This document shows, piece by piece, positions 8,905-63,086 of a stretch of DNA of 64,000 nt. The translations under genes were made by a program, and so were the position numbers. Position 1 is the stretch's first letter; each line of letters starts with the position of its first letter. The notes beneath the pieces were generated by a model. The model was not told the DNA's origin. It searched no databases and saw only the letters and a list, made by a program, of their open reading frames with translations. Where the stretch lies: contig OZ024756.1 in NCBI GenBank assembly GCA_964016885.1, forward strand, positions 11,036,001 to 11,100,000. Direction: 5' to 3'. Origin of the DNA: Eledone cirrhosa (Eukaryota).

Positions 8905-9175
8905 TGGAGTTGTAGGAGAACCATACACAGGGGTTCTTGGGCATTTTAAGCCTGGTAGAGCCTAGCTCCACTCAAGGTCTGAATACAGGAGATTTCTTCT
9001 AGAGAAGAATACCGAGTGATAGAGGGGAGGTGAAAAAGTGATATAGAGGAAGGATCGGCCCCATTACTTGACTGGTACTTTATTTATTGACCTCAAAAGG
9101 ATGAAAGCAAAATTGACCATGGTGGGATTTGAACTCAGAGAGAAAAGCTAGAATGAATACTGTAAAGCATTCTAT
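8905..9175 (-). mobile_element. SINE family A variant with alternative 3' extension
   Basis: Contains ACTGGTACTTTATT...AGGATGAAAG...GGGATTTGAACTCAG like the other family A copies; 8905-9050 matches the reverse complement of about 62185-62330. Confidence 0.7.
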
Positions 9176-9245: not shown

Positions 9246-9404
9246 GTATGAGAAAGAAAAGAAATAGGATGATAGATGAGAATAAGAAAAGAAAAAGAAA
9301 ATGTAAAAAGATTTCTTTTCAAGAGGAAAACAGGTGTGTATATATATATATATATATATTATTCAAAATATTAATAAATGAAGACATTCACATAATCAAA
9401 ATAT

Positions 9405-9475
9405 ATGTTTTATTATATATATTTCGGAGGTACTGTGCTGTTTTTTTCAGTACGTCCTCATCAGATAAAATACAT
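9405..9475 (-). ncRNA. Minimal type I hammerhead ribozyme (left-arm copy)
   Basis: Reverse complement of 9612-9681 with one extra loop base. Confidence 0.8.
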
Positions 9476-9611
9476 GAATTGATGTATGACATACCTCAAC
9501 TGTGTTGATGGTTCAATTCCAGTCTTGGCAGGACTGGAATTGAACCATCAACAGTCTGCCAAGACTGGAATTGAACCATCAAGACCGTTGAGGTTTGTCA
9601 TACATCAATTC

Positions 9612-9681
9612 ATGTATTTTATCTGATGAGGACGTACTGAAAAAACAGCACAGTACCTCCGAAATATATATAATAAAACAT
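9612..9681 (+). ncRNA. Minimal type I hammerhead ribozyme
   Basis: ttttat CTGATGA gga-c-gtactg (loop) cagtac-c-tcc GAAA tatata TA ataaaa; complete core, stems I and II pair, palindromic stem III; predicted cut after 9672. Confidence 0.85.
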
Positions 9682-9839
9682 ATATTTTGATTATGTGAAT
9701 GTCTTCATTTATTAATATTTTGAATAATATTAATAACTCCAGAAAACTTCTTTGTAGAGTGCTTTTAATCTATTGTAAAACTATATTCATTGAGTAATCA
9801 ATGAACTTTATTAACATTTGGTTATATATATATATATAT

Positions 9840-9951
9840 ATATAGATGAGATTTTACAGGACTAGAACTGTTTCATTCTTTAGAAATCATCAGATTCCTG
9901 ATGATTTCTAAAGAATGAAACAGTTCTAGTCTTGTAGAATCTCATCTATAT
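9840..9951. repeat. Foldback hairpin (54-bp arms, 4-nt spacer) made of two back-to-back HHR cores
   Basis: TCATCAG-attc-CTGATGA at the centre; right arm CTGATGA tttctaaagaat GAAAC agttcta GTC; starts in (TA)n. Confidence 0.85.
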
Positions 9952-10029
9952 TAAAACTTTTATACTCTGCAATGTATTGAGTACCTTACTTACTGTGGTT
10001 ACCTCCGATTCAACCCGGAATAACGTACC

Positions 10030-10117: not shown

Positions 10118-10405
10118 TCCTCATCATCATCCTTTTACGTCCGCTTTTTCCTGATTGCAAGGGTGGGACAGGTCCTTTTCAGCACAGCATCTCTCCATTC
10201 GTCACAATCCTTTGTCAGCTTCAGCTATCTGAGGTCAGCTCTCACCACCTCCGCCCATGATTTTTGTGGTCTTCTTCTACTGCGTCTTCTTTCCACTGGG
10301 ATTTCTTGGCACTTCTTTATTCAGCGATCATCCTCCATATGCATCACACTCTTCTCTCCCGCACACTACAGCCTATCCCTCTTATACACAGTTTCACTCT
10401 CAACT
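10118..10405 (-). mobile_element. RTE-clade LINE 3' fragment with (GAT)n tail
   Basis: Closely similar to 56703-57005 (TTCAGCACAGCATCTCTCCATTCGTCA, CCACTGGGATTTCTTGGCACTTCTTTA). Confidence 0.85.
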
Positions 10406-10407
10406 CG

Positions 10408-11220
10408 TCTACATAGTCATTAACGACATTAGTAAGAGGGTTTCCAACCTCTCCTCCAGCAAAGCCATCTTTGATAGGGCAGCACCCTATTATAATTTAC
10501 CACTGAGTAACAGCGGCTTCTCCGACAAAATCACGTACTCTCCAGATCACCGCCCTACATCTAGAAAGAAAAAACCTAGACAAAAAGATATCATATGGTT
10601 CACACCACCTTTCTCAATGGGAAAACTAAGGCAGGTAAAAAATTCCTAGCTCTCATAGAATCTCCATTTCCCTGTTGGCCATAAATACCAAAAGATATTT
10701 AATTGCCATACAGTAAAAATAGGGTACTCTTGCACCAACACTATTAAATCCTACATCACCAAGAAATGCAAAAGCCCTCCACCATATGGATGCTCATGTA
10801 GAAGGCCTGAAACATGTCCACTAGACCAACAGTGCAACACTCCGGTGGTGATATACCAAGCAGAGGTTACCTCCACCAGCCAGAACCACCAAACTGAAGC
10901 ATGGACCTATGTCGGTATATCCGAGAGCCAGTTTAAAAACCGGTACCTGAATCATGAAACAACCTTCAGATATCCCGAGAAAAAACATGCCACCTGGCTT
11001 GCAAATCACATATGGAACCTTAAGAACAATGGCACACCTTTTCCCATCAAATGGAGGACGTTAGAAAGATCTACCGCCTATGTGAATGGGTCGAAATTTG
11101 TCAACTTTGTAATTCTGAAAAATGCTATATACTCTCACAATTAGCTTCAGATAAGCACTGCCTCAACACACGGCTTGATTGCTTTGGTAACTGCCTTCAT
11201 GAGAAGAGTACATTTTGAGT
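10408..11220 (+). mobile_element. 5'-truncated, frameshifted Penelope-like element: RT C-terminus, Cys linker and GIY-YIG endonuclease
   Basis: AIFDRAAPYYN, IIWFTPPFS, CSCRRPETCPLDQQC, VIYQAEV...YVGISESQFKNRYLNH, LANHIWNLK. Confidence 0.9.
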
Positions 11221-11517
11221 AAATAACTTAGACCTGACTAACATGTCTAGAAGTATACTTTGATTTTCTGACTAGTTTGTATATCAAAGAAATTGGATTC
11301 TTTGAGTCAGCTAGAAAAAATTATTTTTCTTCCATTTTTATTAAATCTTGACTGTGGTCTCTCAAGTGTTACCTCCCTTGATATTACCATCTAATTTTTT
11401 TAAATAACTACCTTTTCCTAATAAATTTTTAAATTACCTGCCTTTGATATATTTCTAAAAAGAAAGCACAATCAAGCCCAACCGGCCATCTTTATTTTTA
11501 ATTTTTCTTATGACAGA

Positions 11518-11564
11518 CTTAATGAGTTGTTGTCCAGAACCCAACGAAACTTAAGTAACTATTT
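11518..11564 (+). ncRNA. Degenerate hammerhead motif in the 3' region of the PLE
   Basis: cTTAATGA gttg (loop) caac GAAA cttaag TA actat; first box is mutated, stem II and palindromic stem III are intact. Confidence 0.55.
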
Positions 11565-11741: not shown

Positions 11742-11802
<61 letters not shown>

Positions 11803-12399
11803 AAAGTTCTATTTAAAATTGTTGGGATACAACAAGTAAATATTTTTATAACTGATATAAAGCACTCAACAAGTATTTGGAGTAGATATACGATATTAAT
11901 AAATGGAAACTATATTTATAAAACCATATCTATTTCATTATACATATTTCAGGGATACCAAATTAAATTATGGTATGCCTTCAGACAAAATACAATATAT
12001 AACAGTTTTACAAATAAGCTTTGACGTACCCTATTAAAATGCAACCATTATTTTTGGAAGCCATCCGGATACATTTGGAAACCATACACAGACACTTACA
12101 TGTGAGAGAAATATAGGAAGTTGATGATAGCAAGCACTCCCCAACATTTCAGTTCTAGCTACATAATTATTCTTGGTGGTATTCAGACTAAAATTAAAAT
12201 TAACTTTTCTGATAGGTACAAGAGCAAGAAATTTAATTAATGTAATTTTAATTAATTTTCAATAATGAATGTTATTTAATTGATGTCAGGTGTGTTGGTA
12301 AGTTTTAATTCATCATAGCACTTTGTTAATATTTGAACTGTTATGAGTGGTTGGTTAGGATAGGATTTCACCTTTGATATTACTTTGGTCCTTAATGCT

Positions 12400-28690: not shown

Positions 28691-28750
28691 AAGTAACTTC
28701 TACAGGATCAGTACTGTTTCATTCTGTGATACAATCATCAGGAGATCTTC
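28691..28750 (-). ncRNA. Degenerate hammerhead core, same family as 9898-9940
   Basis: Minus: cCTGATGAtt..agaatGAAAcagtactgatcctgtagaa versus cCTGATGAtt..agaatGAAAcagttctagtcttgtagaa; no clear stem I. Confidence 0.45.
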
Positions 28751-29665: not shown

Positions 29666-30046
29666 GGTACCAACATACACACACACATATATGTGGAGAG
29701 AGGGGGGGGGGGGAGAGAAAGAGAGAGATGAGGGGGAGAGAGAGAGGAGAAAGAGAGGGAGAGAGAGAGATCTTTATGTTTCAATGTAGTTGTCGAATAG
29801 CGTAGATATGAATATTTGAAAAAAGAAAAAGCAAATGTTGGTAAGATTAGTTTAATAGTGTAAATATTTCTAATCTTGTTAACTACAACTACAGACATTC
29901 CAACATTTAACCACTTACAATGTTCAACACAGATACACAAATTTCTTTTATTTAATTATAATTTTAGAAGCTAAGAGTTTACAGTGTCAATACTGTATCA
30001 TGTAGTGTGTGTATCTATATATATATATATATATAAATGAGATAAT

Positions 30047-30436
30047 TGTTTCTACTTTAGGCACAAGGCCAGCAATTACCCAGTGCATTACTGGTACTTA
30101 ATTTTATCGACCCCGTAAGGATGAAAGGCAAAGTCAACCTCGGCAGGATTTGAACTCAGATCGTAAAGGGACGTAACTATGCTGGAAAGCATGGCGTCCG
30201 ACCCTCTACTGATACTGCCAATCCACCGCCCTCATATAAATGAGATAATTGTTTCTACTTTAGGCACAAGGCCAGCAATTACCCAGTACATTACTGGTAC
30301 TTTATTTTATCGACCCCGTAAGGATGAAAGGCAAAGTCAACCTCGGCGGGATTTGAACTCAGATCGTAAAGGGACGTAACTATGCTGGAAAGCATGGCGT
30401 CCGACCCTCTACTGATACTGCCAATCCACCGCCCTC
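30047..30436 (-). mobile_element. Two tandem full-length family A SINEs (203-bp period) bounded by three copies of a 16-bp target site duplication (TSD)
   Basis: ATATAAATGAGATAAT at 30031, 30234 and 30437; B-box GAGTTCAAATC on the minus strand; GCCTTTCATCCTTACGGGGTCGATAAA resembles the Deu/Nin SINE domain as I recall it. Confidence 0.88.
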
Positions 30437-30925: not shown

Positions 30926-31279
30926 TATCATCTCATTTCTACAGCTGAGTAAACTGGAGCAATGTGAAATAAAGTGTCTTGATCAAGGAAACAACACATC
31001 ACCCGGTCTGAGAATTGAACTCACAACCTTTCGATTGCAAGGCCAATGCTTTAACCACTAAGCCATGTGCCTCCATTACATAGCCATGTACCTCCATTCA
31101 CACAGATATATATAAATATATATATCTGTGTGAAGGTGCATGGTTTAGTGGTTAGAGCATTGGGCTTGCAATCGAAATGTTGTGAGTTCAATTCTCAGAC
31201 CAAGTGATATGTTGTTTCCTTGAGCAAGACACTTTATTTCACATTGCTCCAGTTTACTCAACTGTAGAAATGAGATGAT
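30926..31279. mobile_element. Head-to-head inverted pair of tRNA-derived CORE-like SINEs (family C)
   Basis: A-box TGGTTTAGTGG, B-box GAGTTCAATTC, CORE-like TTCCTTGAGCAAGACACTT; arms meet at a TA-rich centre near 31114. Confidence 0.85.
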
Positions 31280-33380: not shown

Positions 33381-33598
33381 TTTTCTTCTCATGTTTATCT
33401 CATCTTATTCTAATGCAAGCAAGGTCAGAATTCTCACATCGCTTTCTGTTCAAACTGGCTGTAATTGGTTGCTCATACTGATGTTAAGGTATTGTTGTTA
33501 AATAAATAATATCAAAATCTCATAGATTCGATATTATGTGAGATATTATGTTAAATAAAGTGTTTACCATGAAAATACAATAGTATGTATAGAATAAT

Positions 33599-33774
33599 TG
33601 TTTCTACTTTTGGCACAAGGCCAGCAATTACCCCAGTACATTACTGGTACTTTATTTTATCGACCCCGTAGGGATGAAAGGCAAAGTTAACCTCGGCGGG
33701 ATTTGAACTCAGAATGGCAAGGGTCGTAACTCTATGCGTCTGACCCTCTACCGATACTGCCAATCCACCTCCCT
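33599..33774 (-). mobile_element. Family A SINE with 18-bp TSD
   Basis: TAGTATGTATAGAATAAT at 33581 and 33775. Confidence 0.88.
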
Positions 33775-47534: not shown

Positions 47535-47890
47535 CTATACTATATATATATATATTTCTATACTCTATATATATATATTTCTATACTATATATATATATA
47601 TATATATATCTATACTATATATATATTTCTATACTATATATATATATTTTAATACTATAATATATACTTTTCTATACTATATATATATACTTTTCTATAA
47701 TATATATATATACTTTTCTATAATATATATATATACTTTTCTATAATATATATATATACTTTTCTATACTATATATATTTCTATACTATATATATATATA
47801 TTTCTATACTATATATATATACTTTTCTATACTATATATATATACTTTTCTATACTATATATATATACATTTCTATACTATTTCTATACT
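47010..47890. repeat. Inverted low-complexity repeat: (TAGTATAGAAA(TA)n) units mirrored by ((TA)nTTTCTATACTA) units around a (TA)n centre near 47410
   Basis: Rare variants are mirrored: AGTATTAAAA/TTTTAATACT, TAGAAATTAAA/TTTAATTTCTA. Confidence 0.85.
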
Positions 47891-47894
47891 TTCA

Positions 47895-48765
47895 TTATTT
47901 TGATGATAAGGCTGAATATTATAATGAAGCTTTAAATAGAGCAGGATTTTCAAATTAAATGAAATACATTGATAACAATAACATGGCAAATCACCCTAGT
48001 ATTAATTATATTAATAATAAACAATTTAACTTAAACACTAAACCAAACAAAAGAACTAGAACTAGAAATATTATTTGGTACTCCACCCCATTCTCATTAA
48101 GCATTAAAACACCTTTAGCAAAGCTATTTTTTAAAGCACTAGACAGATACCACACTATCTGTAACAGACATACTATAAAACTATCCTACTCTACTACTAT
48201 GAACATAGCACAAAATATAAATAGAAGTAATAATAGAAACTTAAATTTAAACACTATCCAAAATAACCAACATTGCAATAATATAATAATTCTAAGAATA
48301 TCCAGTATAATAGTACCGTTCCGAGCAACAACTCCGTAAAATGTAACTGTAGAATCAAATCAAACTGCCCTTTACAAAATAATTGTTTAGATAAAAATGT
48401 AGTTTATAAATGCACAGTTAAAATTAGAGATAATATATTTAACTATGTTGGTGCCACTTCTACAAAATTTAAAGAACGCTGGAATAACCATAATCATACT
48501 TTTAAAAGATTTGATAAAAAAATCTTCTACTTCACTTTCACATCTTATATGGAACTTAAAAAGCAAGGATATAGACTATTCAATATCTTGGAAAATTATT
48601 TCGAAGCAGCTGCCTACCGAAATATGGCTTTATCAAAATTCTGTAAATTGTGTATTGAAGAAATTTTTTATATTATTAACTGTCAAAACTCTATTAATCT
48701 CAGAACAGAATTATTTTCTTCTTGCAGACATCGCCAACATTCCCTTTTCAGAACTATGTTTAATT
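47895..48765 (+). mobile_element. 5'-truncated Penelope-like element with GIY-YIG endonuclease, frameshifted
   Basis: FDDKAEYYNEALNRAGF, IIWYSTPFS, TIKLSYS, CNCRIKSNCPLQNNC, VVYKCTV..YVGATSTKFKERWNNH, LSHLIWNLK, CKLC..CRH. Confidence 0.9.
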
Positions 48766-48917
48766 TATAATATTCCTTAAACCTTCAAAATGTTTTTATC
48801 TTCTTTAACAATTTAGAATTTTTAATATTTTAATATCTTAATATTTCTAAATGGTAATATCTTTAATATTTGTAATATTTTCACCTTTCAACAAAAATTT
48901 CTTTTAATATATATATA

Positions 48918-48984
<67 letters not shown>

Positions 48985-49037
48985 ATGTATATAATTTTAA
49001 TTTTTAATCTTTTAATTCTTACATTATTATTTTTCTA

Positions 49038-49155
49038 TGATCTGAGTTCAAATCCCGCCGAGGTTAACTTTGCCTTTCATCCTTACGGGGTCGATAAAAT
49101 AAAGTACCAGTAATGTACTGGGTAATTGCTGGCCTTGTGCCTAAAAATATAAACA
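49038..49155 (+). mobile_element. 5'-truncated family A SINE with 15-bp TSD
   Basis: ATTATTATTTTTCTA at 49023 and 49156. Confidence 0.85.
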
Positions 49156-49674
49156 ATTATTATTTTTCTAATGACACTCTCTATAAAAAATTTTTTTAGA
49201 CGTAGATTGATAATCATTAACTAACATTGAAAAATGTATTCTCTTCTCGACAGTTTCTTAGATAAACACATCATGTATCTCCTCTTTTGGTTTTTTGATT
49301 CTCAAACATTCACACATCTTCCGACTAAAATAATTAATTCATCTCACACTTCTTTAAATTCATCGATTAATAAAAAAAAAAAATTGGAGTTATCTTTCCT
49401 TTCTCAGTTATTATATACGTAACTCCGATAAATTAACAATATTATAAAACATTCTCAACGCTGAACAAAATATTCAAATCTATAAATTCATAACTTAAAC
49501 TACCTATTTATTTACATATAACTCAAAATCAACATAACTCGTATTATAAACAACTACCTAAAACTGGTACTACCTATTTACATAAAACACAAAATCAACA
49601 TCCCTCATAACTGATATTATAAACAACTAATAACTGTAAATTATCAATATCTCTTTTAATACCTATACATATGC

Positions 49675-49935
49675 AATTATTAATATATATAGATATTTAG
49701 TTATGTAATAAACAACATAAGATAATTATTTCATTTACCAGTGGTTTCTTGGAAGCAAACAAAATTTGCTTTCAGTCATCAGAATGAAAAGATCCTGGTG
49801 TATTTATTGATAGTGGATTTTAAAAACCTGATGACTGAAAGCAAATTTTGTTTGCTTCCAAGAAACCGCTGGTAAATGATATAATTATCTTATGTTGTTT
49901 ATTACATAACTAAATATCTATATATATTAATAATT
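49675..49935. repeat. Foldback inverted repeat (108-bp arms, 45-bp spacer), each arm ending at an HHR CTGATGA box
   Basis: Arms 49675-49782 and 49828-49935. Confidence 0.92.
49729..49789 (-). ncRNA. Minimal type I hammerhead ribozyme
   Basis: Minus: tttcatt CTGATGA ctgaaagcaaa ttttg tttgcttccaa GAAA ccactgg TA aatgaaa; perfect 7-bp stem I, imperfect base of stem II. Confidence 0.75.
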
Positions 49936-50351
49936 AATATATATGTAACCTACATAGAGCACTCTTTTTTCCTGGACCTTTCCGACGAAATTACTTCATT
50001 TGTGTATGTATATAATTTTAATTTTTAATATTTATACATATACAATATTTCAATAAGATAAATACTTACAAACATAATTCTCCATATAAATATAATATAA
50101 GTAAATATTCAAATTTTTTTCTTACCCCAAATTAACGTAAATATGTGGTCTTCTTTTCTTTTCATTTTTCTTCCTCTCCTAATAATACAAACATATCTAA
50201 ATTTCCCTAGCGTCTAAAATAACGATTTTTCAACTCATTTACATATTCATTAGCATACTCATCCTAACAATTTTAAATCCACTATCCAAGGAACACTTCA
50301 ACTGATATGGTATGTTCCTTGGCTATGTCAAAATTTATAAAACACACTTTG

Positions 50352-50413
50352 TATTTTATCTGATGAAAGCGTACCAAAGTTTTTGGTACCCTTGAAATAT
50401 ATATAATAGAATA
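50352..50413 (+). ncRNA. Minimal type I hammerhead ribozyme
   Basis: tattttat CTGATGA aag-c-gtaccaaa gtt tttggtac-c-ctt GAAA tatata TA atagaata; predicted cut after 50405. Confidence 0.87.
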
Positions 50414-50469
50414 AATATGGTTTTATAAATATAGTTTCCATTTATTTAATATCATTGAATATTTACTCC

Positions 50470-52600
50470 ATAAATCTGACATCAGGTTCTTTGCTATGGA
50501 GAACATACTGCCCATGCAGTGGTGTTTGCTCCCATTTAATGCACAGTCTCTGTTGGCCTTCATATTTTGCCAACACTTTGATATTCTTTGCAGCTTTAAT
50601 TGCAGAATCGCCATTATTATTTTCAAACTGTATTACCAGTTCTTCCGCAAACTTCCTACCTTCCTTTGTGACTAAATCTAACCTCTTCTTCCTTTCGTGA
50701 ACTGCGACCATTTTCATCATCCAGCCATCTGTTGTTTTAAGGCACTGATTGAAAGCTCTAGCTGTATCTTTCCTTTACCTCCATTTTATCTAGGGAGATA
50801 GAGATGATCCACATCTGCTTTTGGGTGATGTACTCTACTACAGGTCAAAAGTTTCCTGATTTTGGTGTCCACTCTCTTGTTCACGTTCCAATTGAAACTG
50901 TAGGTGACAACATGGATTGCAAATGTATTTATGGCAGATAATTTATTTCACGACTTAAGCTCTGTTTTCGTGACAGCAAGTACTCTCCGGTAGCATTCAT
51001 TTCTGATTCTCTCTTTCATGCTAGTGTGGTGAATACCTTGGCCTTCATTGATCCCTAGCTATCTGGAGGCTTGTTCTTGTTCCCTAATTACTGTATTCAC
51101 ATCTATTTCAATTGAGTCTGTGCTTGTCATTCTCCCTTTCTTGAATGTTGCTTTGGTACATTTTTCCAATCCAAACTCCATCCTGAACACCTTGGACTGT
51201 CTTCAGCAATCCTTCCAGTTCATTGTCATTTTTATCATACAGCTTCAAGTCATCCATATAAAATAGGTGTTTTATTGTTTTGCTGTTTATTTTGTATCCA
51301 TATTTTGTTTTGTTGAGTGATAAAGATAGCAGTGCGAGTGCAATGTAAAATATCTGAGGAGAAAATGAACCAGCCTGAAAAATACCACAATTTATAATTC
51401 CATCACTATGTGACAATGATAGGCTTGTATTCCATAGAGACATATTGTATTTCAGGAAGTTTGATATTACTAGGGAAATCTTCAGAACATACAAAGTTTT
51501 CAAAATCCATGTGTGGAACACTGTCAAATGCTTTCTTATAGCCAATCCAAGCAGTAGTCAGATTTCTATACATTTTATGACAGTTTTTCAGGATCATGCG
51601 GCTAATGAGAAGTTGGTCTTTGTACCTGTAAGACCCACAGCGACAACGTTTCTGCTCAATAGGGAAAAGATGATCTTCATCCCTAAATTTGTAAGTTGTC
51701 TCAGTCAAGATTGAGGTGAGAATTTTGTATGATGTCAGAAGGCAAGTGATAGGGCGATCACGATTTGGAATATTTGTTTCTGTTGATTTTGGCAAGAGAT
51801 ATGTTATACGAGTCAGGAGTTTTCTCAGGGTTGTGCATAATTTCGTTATAACATTTTACCAACATATCATGTGAAGAAGTTAGAGAAGATAACCAAATGT
51901 TTGGCACTGTATCAATGCCAGGGGATTTCAATTTCTTTGCTTTCTTTAGTGCCAACTCCAGTTCTTCCAAAGTTATGTCTTGCTAAGTTTGTCTTTCTAA
52001 ATTATCGTATGTTTCTTCCATGTTCTTTATCCATACTCCATTTGCATTATGGGATTTTTCTGTACTCCATACTGTTTTCCAGAATTCTTCAATTTCATGA
52101 ATTAAAGGGGATTCCTTCAATTCCTATAAAATCTTTTTGCATCAGACATAAACAGCTTATTTTGCCTATAAATCCTTTTTCGTTTTTTAAATCTTCTAAT
52201 TCTTTGAGCTTTCAGCTGAACTTTCTATTTCAGGGTTTCTTTGATTGATGCAATATCAGGGTTTGAAGTTACATTGTATTTCTTAACTACTTTCCTTCCT
52301 TTTCTTGACTTGAGAGACTTCCCAGCACATATTTCATCCAGGATCAATATATTTTCCCTCATCATTTCAATTTCTTTCTCAATTTTTAACTTTCAGGGTG
52401 GTTTTTTGTGAGTGTTGTGTCTTTTTTGCTTTTTCTTTAACCCACATTTCCTCTCTATTACAGTTGCTGCGGCATAAATAACCTCATTTATTTCTGATAT
52501 AGCAGACTGCATCTCTTCAATTATTGCTTTAACAGTCTAATTTCTAGTTCTTATGTGTCTTTTTTTATGGTTGTTGTTTGTCAATTATTTGCAAGGACTC
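50470..52600 (-). mobile_element. Degenerate non-LTR retrotransposon RT, R4/Dong-like
   Basis: SPGIDTVPNIWL, RPITCLLTSYKILT, EQKRCR..KDQLLI, YKKAFDSVPH, GIFQAGSFSP, HLFYMDDLKLY, WEQTPLHGQY across frameshifts. Confidence 0.82.
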
Positions 52601-52777
52601 TCTTTCACCCATACTAATGTTTTTTTTATTTTTCCAAGTTCATTGAGAATTTCTTTTGTTTATTCTATCTGATCTTTATGTTCATGAGTAGAAGTACCCT
52701 CATCCATATTGTCAACCTACCCTTCAGCTTGACCCTGCTCCAATGTGTTTTTGATACCCTCCATGTTTTGTGGAATT

Positions 52778-53030
52778 AGCTTTGCCTTTCATCCTTATAG
52801 GGTCGATAAAATAAAGCACTAGTAATATACTAGGGTTGATTTAATCGACTTTCCCTTTTCCCCGAATTGCTGGTCTTGTGCCTATAGTAGAAACATTATA
52901 TCCCTTTACGGTCTGAGTTCAAATCCCGCCAAGGTTAATTTTGCCTTTCATCCTTACGGGGTCGATAAAATAAAGTACCAGTAATATACTGGGTAATTGC
53001 TGGCCTTGTGCTTAAAGTAGAAACAATTAT
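52778..53030 (+). mobile_element. Two adjacent truncated family A SINE copies, the second with an (ATT)n tail
   Basis: TTTGCCTTTCATCCTTA..GGGTCGATAAAATAAAG present twice. Confidence 0.8.
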
Positions 53031-53304
53031 TAATATTATTAATATTATTATTATTATTACATTAGTTGGCAAGGAGGTATAGTAGAAGACACTTGTCGAA
53101 GGTGCCCCATATTGGGACTGAACCCCAAACCACATGGTTCCAAAGTAAGTTCCATACTACATAGAGATGCCTGTACCTATATGTATATAAATATATATAC
53201 ATACACACATATACACCATACACAACCCTCCCATACACAACCCCCTCCCCCACACACACACACATATACACCATACACATCCCTCCCATACACAACCCCC
53301 CCCC

Positions 53305-53752: not shown

Positions 53753-53885
53753 GTGAAGCTGCATGGCTTAGTGGTTAGAGCATTGGACTTACAATCATCA
53801 AGTTGTGAGTTCAATTTCCAGACAGGGCAGTGTGTTGTTTCTTGAGCAAGACACTATTTCATGTTGCTCCAGTTTACTCAGCTTG
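53753..53885 (+). mobile_element. Family C (CORE-like) SINE 5' part
   Basis: Matches 31128-31260. Confidence 0.8.
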
Positions 53886-60165: not shown

Positions 60166-60299
60166 GGAAGAAGAAGAAAAAGATGATGTTAGGATACGTG
60201 GTTTCTAGTATTTTAACCGATGGATTTTCTTTCAACAAACCAACCCCTTATTACAATATATCATTGAAATGGAGTGAATTTAAAGATATGAGTAATAAT

Positions 60300-60486
60300 T
60301 GTTTCTACTTTAGGCACAAGGCCAGCAATTACCCAGTGCATTACTGGTACTTTATTTTATCGACCCCGTAAGGATTAAAGGCAAAATCTACCTCGGCGGG
60401 ATTTGAACTCAGATCGTAAAGGGACGTAACTATGCTGGAAAGCATGGCGTCCGACCCTCTACCGATACTGCAAATCCACCGCCCTC
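60300..60486 (-). mobile_element. Full-length family A SINE with 16-bp TSD
   Basis: AGATATGAGTAATAAT at 60284 and 60487. Confidence 0.9.
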
Positions 60487-60555
60487 AGATATGAGTAATA
60501 ATACTTCTAATATACATTAAAATAGAAAATGTAGATATCATTATATAACTTAATA

Positions 60556-60644
60556 GACTTTGCCTTTCATCCTTACGGGGTCGATAAAATAAAGTACCAG
60601 TAATGCACTGGGTAATTGCTGGCCTTGTGCCTAAAGTAGAAACA
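60556..60644 (+). mobile_element. 5'-truncated family A SINE with 16-bp TSD
   Basis: ATTATATAACTTAATA at 60540 and 60645. Confidence 0.88.
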
Positions 60645-61440
60645 ATTATATAACTTAATACACACAATTTGCTTGTTCAAAAAAAGAAAGAAAAAGCTAT
60701 AACAATAAACTACTGTTTAATGACGTATATATACATTTTCTCTGAGAGACAGATACTGCAGCTACTACTACCCAGCTTATGTTTTGGTATAATTCTAAAA
60801 CACATTAAAATAGAAAATGTAAAGATCATTTGGCTTAATGCCCCATTCAATCTTATTATAAGTACACATATTGATAAACACTTTTTTAAAACTTAAGTAA
60901 ACACTTTGTGAAGAATTTTGAAATTATCAAAAGTAATAATGTTAAATTTAGCATCAGCTGTACGCACAATTTTGCTATAGAAATAGCAAACATCAATAGT
61001 AATATCTTTAAATTGCTCTATTAATACTTTTATAACTTCTCATTCATAAAACCATCTTAATCCCATAAATTGACCATTAAATCGTTTCTTTTTTGAAACC
61101 GGCAATTTATTATATTTATAACTGGTAATACAATTTCCAAAGATTATATCATGTTAACTGAAAATAATTTTAAAAGGCGATTTAATCAGCACCAATATTC
61201 CTTTATATATCTGGAGATATTTTTAGATATAAATTTATCAAAATACATGTGAGATTTGAAGAAAAAATTATTTGGAATATATTACAACATACCAAAACAG
61301 CTGGGTAACAGTAGCTGCAGTATCTGTCTCTCAGAGAAAATGAATACATATGTCATTAAATAGTAGTTTATTTTTATTGTCTTTCTTGCATTTTTTTTTT
61401 TTCGAACAAGCAAATTGTGTGTATTAAATTATATAATGAT
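60645..61440. repeat. Diverged inverted repeat (about 150-bp arms, 60645-60790 / 61289-61440) enclosing PLE endonuclease remnants
   Basis: TCTCTGAGAGACAGATACTGCAGCTACT / AGTAGCTGCAGTATCTGTCTCTCAGAGA and ACACACAATTTGCTTGTTC / GAACAAGCAAATTGTGTGT. Confidence 0.82.
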
Positions 61441-62024: not shown

Positions 62025-62335
62025 TATTCTGGTGGCAAATTAACAGAGTTGTGGGAATGACAGAATGCTTTGCAGTATTCTTTCTGTCACTCTGCTTTCT
62101 CAGTTCAAATCCTGCCAAGGTCGACTTTGCCTTTCATCCTTTCAAGGTCGATAAAAAAAAGTACCAGTCTTGTACTGGGTACGATTCTTCTTCTATATCT
62201 CTTTCACACATCTATCCGTTCTCTATGCTTCTCTGGAAGAAATCTACTGTATTCAGACCTGGAGAGAAGATGGACTCTGCCACGTTTTAAAATGGCTGCC
62301 ATATGTGAATGTGGTTCTCCTACGACTCCCCCAGG
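62025..62335 (+). mobile_element. Family A SINE variant with alternative 3' extension
   Basis: CAGTTCAAATCCTGCCAAGGTCGACTTTGCCTTTCATCC; extension matches 8905-9050. Confidence 0.72.
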
Positions 62336-62740: not shown

Positions 62741-63006
62741 TGTCTATTTTTCCTTGTTAGCAATGGCTGGACAGGTCAACATCCGTTAAGCCAGTAGTTA
62801 ATCAGTGCTACTAACCTCTTAAATTGACCAAAGGTCAGCTGCATCATACTTACACGTGTTTCTGCACTCCTTAAAGTGCACTGTCTGCATTTGATCATGA
62901 CACCAGCACTAGAGAGGTTGCCATACCCCTGATACACACACACATATATGTTTTCTGGTATGCTATGTTGTTAGAGGAGATGAATTGATTGAGGTATCTA
63001 TATCTT

Positions 63007-63054
63007 ATTTAATTCTGATGACACCTCCTAGGATGAAACATATGTAAATTAAAT
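63007..63054 (+). ncRNA. Minimal type I hammerhead ribozyme
   Basis: atttaatt CTGATGA cacctcctaggat GAAA catatg TA aattaaat; perfect 8-bp stem I, palindromic stem III, weak stem II (cct/agg). Confidence 0.75.
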
Positions 63055-63086
63055 TATGATAAAATTAACAGTGTTTGGTAATATTT

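Follow-up and report, generated by a model that had tools for sequence, protein, structure and literature searches.

Stem II covariation and a kept pair-4 mismatch in hammerhead motifs of probable Penelope-like element origin from Eledone cirrhosa

Two hammerhead motifs 41 kb apart in Eledone cirrhosa DNA, here called A and B, appear to be homologous type I folds at the 3' end of 5'-truncated copies derived from a Penelope-like element (PLE), with a stem II that evolved by compensatory change in active master elements; we give this reading a probability of about three in four. The window, that is, the whole stretch of DNA analysed, is 64,000 nt long (contig OZ024756.1), and coordinates below count from its first letter. 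The original prediction, which compared stem II of A and B, read the covariation correctly; it did not see that the motifs are tails of a retroelement, nor that covariation of this kind had been published for such tails (PMC4209133).

Hammerhead copies in the window

The copies discussed in this section are the following.

50352..50413, plus strand: hammerhead B, with helix I 50352-59 paired with 50406-13, core 50360-66 and stem II 50367-93
50394-97 and 50397-50404, plus strand: 3' part of hammerhead B, namely GAAA and the helix III palindrome; predicted cut after A50405
50414..50470, plus strand: 3' terminal flank of B, homologous to the flanks of A and F and breaking off near 50470
9611..9690, plus strand: hammerhead A, with core 9623-29, stem II 9630-60 and predicted cut after A9672
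9396..9476, minus strand: inverted twin of A (motif 9414-9464), the other arm of the same hairpin
9351..9735, no single strand: hairpin A (385 nt), two 5'-truncated copies in inverted, tail-to-tail arrangement with (TA)n tracts on both sides
11800..11996, minus strand: copy F (motif 11921-11996), with a core that starts at 11984 and lacks 3 nt, and a 3' end leading into (TA)n
49675..49935, no single strand: hairpin D, a separate PLE-type tail-to-tail insertion
49717-49794, minus strand: whole hammerhead of hairpin D (core 49782), with A.C at stem II pair 4
49828, plus strand: partial hammerhead of hairpin D

As modelled, A and B are type I hammerhead folds composed of a core, stems I and II and a palindromic helix III. 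The core, CUGANGA ... GAAA ... UH, is intact in both (CUGAUGA, with a UA site) and lacks three letters in copy F. Helix I has 6-8 bp and helix II 3+6 to 3+8 bp; helix III consists of 2 bp plus a palindrome, the two pairs lying inside AUAUAUAU, the self-duplex of which was computed at -3.2 kcal/mol. There is no extra base between positions 9 and 10.1 in A and B, pair 1 is A-U in B and F, and helix II runs 6-8 bp beyond pair 4 without a conserved loop 2. The canonical type I arrangement of the Schistosoma type, a 4-bp helix II with a loop contacting an internal loop of helix I, is not that of A, B or F. Our search pattern matched three times within the window against 0.00 matches expected. The Rfam hammerhead models matched neither A nor B, at the gathering threshold or at E<=10, and their only match was a weak one to HH9 (15.3 bits) on hairpin C. 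Rfam miRNA-type matches, with scores below gathering, were dismissed as hairpin artefacts.

A and B are homologous along some 120 nt, a stretch that takes in the 3' flank (70% over 119 nt). Copy F, which the original prediction overlooked, is homologous at 11878-11995 on the minus strand and 82% like B. The proposed collection of homologues and building of a covariance model has been carried as far as a model from A and B, which scores copy F at 60 bits. Gapped alignments put the identity of the 3' flanks of A, B and F at 77-92%, and family sequence extends past the end of B near 50470 both in copy F and in loose read ends. Since the homology reaches beyond the ribozyme, letters shared by A and B can reflect shared ancestry. 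The three copies are independent insertions of different subfamilies.

To gauge the abundance of the family, three contig sets from one sample and one RAD read set were placed on 50030-50520 (491 bp); the contig sets contributed 6,638, 6,944 and 7,404 contigs, and the reads numbered 27,359. Summed depth, which is not copy number but shows a very abundant, 3'-biased repeat, is about 1e2-1e3 at 50115-50301 and up to 5.5e3 further upstream, compared with 4e5-3e6 at 50336-50454. Several joints near 50280-50385 link opposite strands, as in hairpin A. With so abundant a repeat, inserted independently, the 41-kb spacing of A and B is incidental, and we discarded the idea that it has a meaning of its own.

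The same data bear on whether the 130-150-nt segment could be an element in its own right, similar to a retrozyme or a SINE, that is non-autonomous and relies on mobilisation in trans. As such an element would have it, upstream of 50320 the depth is lower by a factor of about 100 or more, 50332 is the end point of 201 X8 molecules, and no matching ORF lies near copies A and F. Like the copies described here, non-LTR retrozymes (PMC7229834; bioRxiv 10.64898/2026.07.22.740005) are non-coding, high-copy and PLE-derived and carry a type I hammerhead. However, they consist of tandem 170-400-nt units that give rise to circular RNA, whereas the copies here are dispersed, single or inverted, and no head-to-tail tandem array was found at any of the three copies examined in the window (A, B and F). 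The steady 3'-rising depth and the inverted 5'-truncated pairs are the pattern of PLEs (PMC8557442, Fig. 2 legend), and sequence upstream of B is a repeat as well, of lower depth. We therefore consider an independent element unlikely and retain the view of the copies as truncated PLE tails.

A relaxed core scan of the window also returned the twin of A (9464), hairpin C (9893/9898), hairpin D (49782/49828) and a hammerhead E (63015). Hairpin C (9827-9964) is another tail-to-tail insertion, next to (TA)n; each arm has a hammerhead core (9898 on the plus strand, 9893 on the minus strand), helix I is truncated at the hairpin centre, and pair 1 is U.U, as in many Hydra-type hammerheads; a fragment related to it lies at 28698-28748. 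Hammerhead E (63003-63064, plus strand) has an 8-bp helix I, a palindromic helix III and a short, decayed stem II. The centre of hairpin A (9503-9582) holds a nested 25-nt inverted repeat and a 31-nt direct duplication, which suggest repeated fold-back copying. The spacer of hairpin D (49809-49824) is a 16-nt inverted copy (94%) of 50271-50286, 450 bp away and upstream of B, possibly filler captured at insertion.

Compensatory change in stem II

Stem II reads GGA-c-GTACTG/CAGTAC-c-TCC in copy A (9630-9660) and AAG-c-GTACCA/TGGTAC-c-CTT in copy B (50367-50393), letter for letter as first given. Between the two, pairs 1, 2, 3, 9 and 10 are changed on both sides with pairing intact (5 of 9 pairs), as had been claimed, and all five are double transitions. 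Pairs 5-8 are identical. The C.C mismatch reported at pair 4 is there in both copies (9633/9657 in A, 50370/50390 in B), and the reported identity of the lead-in and of the GAAA-TATATATA segment holds as well. The GTAC/GTAC helix, listed among the kept parts, is the same in A and B but is not invariant, as copy F has ATAC/GTAT; read variants diverge further, and we rejected it as a conserved or dimerising element.

The probability that ten changes fall by chance as five whole pairs among nine is 0.0029, and with the added requirement of Watson-Crick pairing the joint probability is 2e-5 to 4e-4, a range set by the transition bias assumed. In an alignment of three rows, two of them the arms of one hairpin, only 1 of 500 shuffles reached as many covarying pairs, and sliding the partners by 1-3 columns in these rows left at most one covarying pair; the structure used here was drawn from the sequences tested. 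On these change-pattern, shuffle and sliding results, the covariation of stem II between A and B goes beyond chance. Registers shifted by an extra base after A9 were judged by eye to break more pairs and were rejected.

Stem II of copy F, AGG-c-ATACCA/TGGTAT-c-CCT, has its C.C at 11977/11954. Over the homologous copies A, B and F, six of the nine stem II pairs are changed and none is broken, every change being a transition. Among contig and read variants, 50367 A>G stands at 30-33% of depth with a near-constant partner in contigs, which is a G.U state at pair 1. Helix I positions 50408 and 50409 swap between U-A and U.G, and 50401 A>G retains the self-complementarity of helix III through G.U. 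These shares were computed for 11 of the 40 variant rows listed, out of 106 rows in all. Selection on RNA structure, the inference first drawn from A and B, is thus supported for the pairing of stem II, but not for a role of the mismatch.

Copying from a hairpin template, by reverse transcriptase template switching or quasi-palindrome repair, could in principle have produced double changes without structural selection. Stem II does diverge faster than the flank, with 10 of 18 paired letters differing between A and B as against 12 of 59 in the 3' flank, a difference that purifying selection alone would not predict, although the 3' flank may itself be under constraint; and the family often makes fold-back junctions. 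Templated copying would nevertheless erase the C.C mismatch, yet this remains in place amid changed pairs. At 50367 the one-sided G.U state is frequent, the exclusive occurrence of transitions among A, B and F is what a route through G.U predicts, and the core is invariant in A and B. We regard templated copying as improbable. Under compensatory change in active masters, the reading we prefer, stem II would be a structural strut of free sequence and constrained pairing that turns over through G.U intermediates.

The pair-4 mismatch and the predicted fold

Copy F keeps C.C at pair 4 despite its ATAC/GTAT helix. Consensus strings derived from loose ends, which agree at 56-95%, carry proximal helices AGG/CCT and GG/CCA and varied distal stems with the 3'-side C kept, and two of them have A instead of C at position 10.4. 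Hammerhead D (core 49782), the flanks of which have no detectable homology to those of A, B and F, also has A.C. Strict C.C is therefore not the kept state; as judged from these sequences, the kept feature is a pair-4 mismatch with C on its 3' side, C.C or A.C. None of the 40 variant rows listed concerns 50370 or 50390, and the lowest share computed (11 rows) is 28%, so that any single change at these positions is probably rarer than 28%. The free variability that the original prediction named as evidence against itself is seen in part, in that 10.4 varies between C and A while the 3'-side C is kept.

We compared other members of the clade in 89 Hydra-type loci, made up of the best 78 distinct of 399 metagenome matches and 11 genome-contig loci. 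The same descriptor found a hammerhead in 70 of the 89, some perhaps false, and yielded 71 distinct hammerhead strings, 36 of them with a stem that extends past pair 4. A pair-4 mismatch was present in only one of the 36 (locus L069), which looks like a decayed copy of a C-G family, and we dropped the idea of a clade-wide feature. Pair 1 is A-U in 2 of the 71; the extra base after position 9 is absent from most Hydra-type hammerheads as well. Our covariance model R1 found only 13 weak matches (25-35 bits) in the 89 loci. Together with its absence, by eye, from the 25 Hydra elements of File S2 of Craig et al. 2021 (PMC8557442), the one case in 36 makes the mismatch lineage-specific. Of the suggestion that C-C is a family-specific stem II feature, the mismatch at pair 4 survives and its strictly C-C form does not.

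These observations are open to two readings. The mismatch is, on the sequences compared, an ancestral mark of the A/B/F lineage that is at least tolerated; alternatively, selection actively maintains it, for instance because the protein of the element or helix I makes contact there, a reading that we consider possible, though we lean against it. Its persistence in the three copies, among which the neighbouring pairs 1-3 and 5 were replaced, in loose-end strings with other proximal helices and, as A.C, in D, its rarity in long stems elsewhere and the missing variant rows all speak for selection. Against it, a single ancestor underlies A, B, F and the read variants, and a Fisher test gives p=0.054 when they count as one lineage and 0.004 when D counts as an independent second, with 36 comparison strings that are not independent of one another. 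By our own estimate, two letters unchanged in three copies have a p of about 0.1-0.6 under neutral rates derived from stem or flank divergence; over all nulls considered, p for selection on the mismatch ranges from about 0.05 to 0.6. The variation at 10.4, the limited agreement of the consensus strings and the 40 variant rows listed out of 106 weigh on the same side.

A stronger form of the selected reading involves the lead-in. The UGUA lead-in is conserved and its helix I partners are variable; it can pair instead with GAAAUAUA, which closes the core. The predicted probability of this pairing is 0.63 in A, 0.18 in B, 0.04 in F and 0.01 in D. Random lead-ins reached the same value in 1 of 200 cases for A and 8 of 200 for B, and only 1 of the 71 other hammerheads exceeds 0.5. 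Such pairing may explain the kept lead-in noted earlier; as a single event in an ancestor, it is weak evidence. The mismatch and the lead-in pairing could then form an off-switch until dimerisation or protein binding, which the rarity of the closed fold favours; that fold is absent in F and D, however, and in B depends on the length of the sequence folded. We think a selected functional element of this kind unlikely, and a fully gated hammerhead, in which the selected C.C or A.C and the fold-back of the lead-in would hold the ribozyme off until dimerisation or the arrival of the element's protein, somewhat more unlikely still. Two other roles for the region were rejected by eye: a slip helix sequestering G8-A9, seen in A, is impossible in B, and pairing of the lead-in with the distal stem II strand has only 4 bp and is broken in read variants.

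For the monomer, the predicted pairing probability of helix III does not exceed 0.001, and the hammerhead fold is less stable than the minimum free energy (MFE) structure by 6-8 kcal/mol. The predicted double hammerheads (-20.4 and -23.4) come near two monomer MFEs (-23.6 and -23.2), although the predicted dimer MFE (-31.3 and -28.7) is a non-hammerhead fold. A weak helix III in the monomer and the near-equal energy of the double hammerhead imply that cleavage would need a tandem partner and probably the protein of the element. In a tandem or hairpin-free transcript, two AUAUAUAU palindromes would join into one 8-bp helix III, and the dimer would cut after the UA at 50404-50405 and trim the element RNA, with the element's protein assisting this predicted self-cleavage in active master elements. 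The copies in the window are probably inert products: the core of F has a deletion, B is a lone monomer, and A is zipped into a long hairpin, its read-through RNA being predicted to form a single one of -282.7 kcal/mol in which the ribozyme is masked.

The idea that cleavage leaves a (UA)n end which then primes on (TA)n targets was rejected: copies in the genome continue through the cut site, and the non-TA helix III of other Hydra-type hammerheads counts against it. There was no pile of ends at the cut site among the loose-end rows listed. For the anole Poseidon element, no reads ended at the cut site of the hammerhead (PMC11167929).

The parent element and related ribozymes

The features discussed in this section include the following.

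47845..48770, plus strand: frameshifted C-terminal part of a Hydra-type PLE ORF (relic), with thumb, CxCx5C linker and GIY-YIG endonuclease
48977..49012, plus strand, and 49998-50033: 36-bp direct duplication in the 3' UTR that separates the ORF relic from hammerhead B
30042-30368, 33593-33713, 49036-49160, 52776-53032, 60293-60649, 62098-62181 and 9060-9139: SINE-like copies

The motifs are the 3' ends of a high-copy repeat that is most likely a Hydra-clade PLE, as indicated by GIY-YIG relics, tail-to-tail hairpins and (TA)n targets. Copies A and F end in (TA)n, and A forms a tail-to-tail pair of 5'-truncated copies. Four broken ORF pieces (47845-48770, 10371-11096, about 60822-61360 and 1034-1688) match full-length reverse transcriptase (RT)-endonuclease proteins, and the relic at 10659-11141 drew 3,841 protein matches. 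The relic at 47845-48770 shows CxCx5C, CxxC and CxH and matches two long ones among these proteins, P0004 and P0034 (E 3e-16 and 5e-14). These two homologues carry RWR, DKT, YRDDG and CxCx5C, hallmarks of the Hydra clade (PMC8557442); the part with the RWR and DKT motifs of the RT is lost from the relics in the window. Pfam gave a weak GIY-YIG match (E 0.035) for one of the four pieces and no match in any of the nine relic homologues scanned.

The relic at 47845-48770 likely represents the element to which hammerhead B belongs. Hammerhead B lies 1.6 kb downstream on the same strand, with insertions in between; in 48 loci picked by hand from the 89, because the scan showed a downstream core, the median distance from ORF to hammerhead is 134 nt (range 77-1095). 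The 36-bp duplication may, to judge from the sequence, bracket about 1 kb of later insertions (a SINE and hairpin D), and subtracting these would bring the distance to about 570 nt. Our searches yielded no intact ORF carrying an A/B/F-type hammerhead, the protein search for longer forms of the relic was empty, and the family pattern was absent from the metagenome contigs searched. A locus search for viral loci was empty, and the viral pattern search gave five unrelated matches.

Other repeats were seen in the window. A second Hydra-type endonuclease relic (10371-11560, plus strand) is of a different family from A/B/F and has a decayed hammerhead-like motif with two core changes at about 11519-11557. 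Further PLE ORF fragments lie at 60700-61360, between inverted arms of about 60710-60790 and 61300-61370 (by eye), and at 1034-1688. The 125-bp SINE-like repeat has at least 10 copies (83-96% identical); a tRNA-like head is present at 31008-31065, with a relative near 53760, and a literature search for published sequences resembling the SINE motif yielded unrelated papers only. The SINEs and satellites are suggestive of an octopus genome. A decayed LINE-like reverse transcriptase on the minus strand (50470-52800, by eye), which we take to be of the RTE type, abuts the truncated end of B. Among the comparison loci, L084-L094 are Hydra-type PLE loci with hammerheads in contigs whose titles name bacterial MAGs or symbionts; this DNA most likely comes from the hosts. 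In L087 and L092, nested insertions have placed several PLE hammerheads of different kinds on both strands of an 8-kb span. One viral contig (L005:301-347, minus strand) has GTAC in stem II of a hammerhead-like motif, the flanks of which are unrelated to the A/B/F family.

Hydra-clade PLE hammerheads (PMC8557442, File S2) resemble ours in being type I and near the 3' end, in lacking an extra base after A9, in a helix III that is short and palindromic or nearly so, and in a cut site of the sequence UA or UU, and their elements share the (TA)n targets and the CxCx5C/CxxC/CxH endonuclease. None of the 25 Hydra elements in that file (26 rows, by eye) has a 1x1 stem II mismatch or a AUAUAUAU helix III, although the descriptor used there may exclude mismatched stems; Hydra-1_oBim from Octopus bimaculoides differs from A, B and F in stems II and III. 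PLE hammerheads with long helix II, palindromic helix III and opposite-strand pairs, in families full of compensatory changes, were described by Cervera and de la Pena 2014 (PMC4209133), and their minimal form shares the short palindromic helix III and long helix II. The consensus in that paper, however, has an extra base between 9 and 10.1 and G10.1-C11.1, whereas A and B lack the extra base and B and F have A-U; its D. virilis example has a bulge in mid-helix II rather than a 1x1 mismatch. Throughout the axolotl family HHR_Amex2, the base of helix II has a U.U mismatch (PMC7229834). A literature search on octopus hammerheads, stem II C-C mismatches and helix II internal loops, with Lunse et al. 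2017 outside its scope, found no such family or mismatch.

The Poseidon PAc hammerhead of Anolis is likewise a PLE hammerhead with a weak helix III, and protein-assisted cleavage has been demonstrated for it (Frangieh et al. 2024, PMC11167929). It belongs to another clade, overlaps the start of the ORF and was assayed for activity, whereas that of A and B is predicted; the ribozyme was dispensable for insertion of the anole element in vitro.

In summary, A, B and F represent a new family in an already published class, stem covariation in PLE hammerheads having been known since 2014, and as it stands one more such family matters little. Of PLE hammerheads it is known that activity is low, that protein helps and that insertion in vitro does not need them. 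The sole feature that sets this family apart from known PLE hammerheads, as far as the sequences compared indicate, is the kept pair-4 mismatch. Should the mismatch turn out to be under selection, a class of ribozymes said to have neither would probably have a protein or tertiary contact at that point, and the many variants of the family would make that contact testable from sequence alone. If the gated reading were true, the thousands of variants in one genome would amount to a natural mutational scan of protein-assisted control of a PLE ribozyme.
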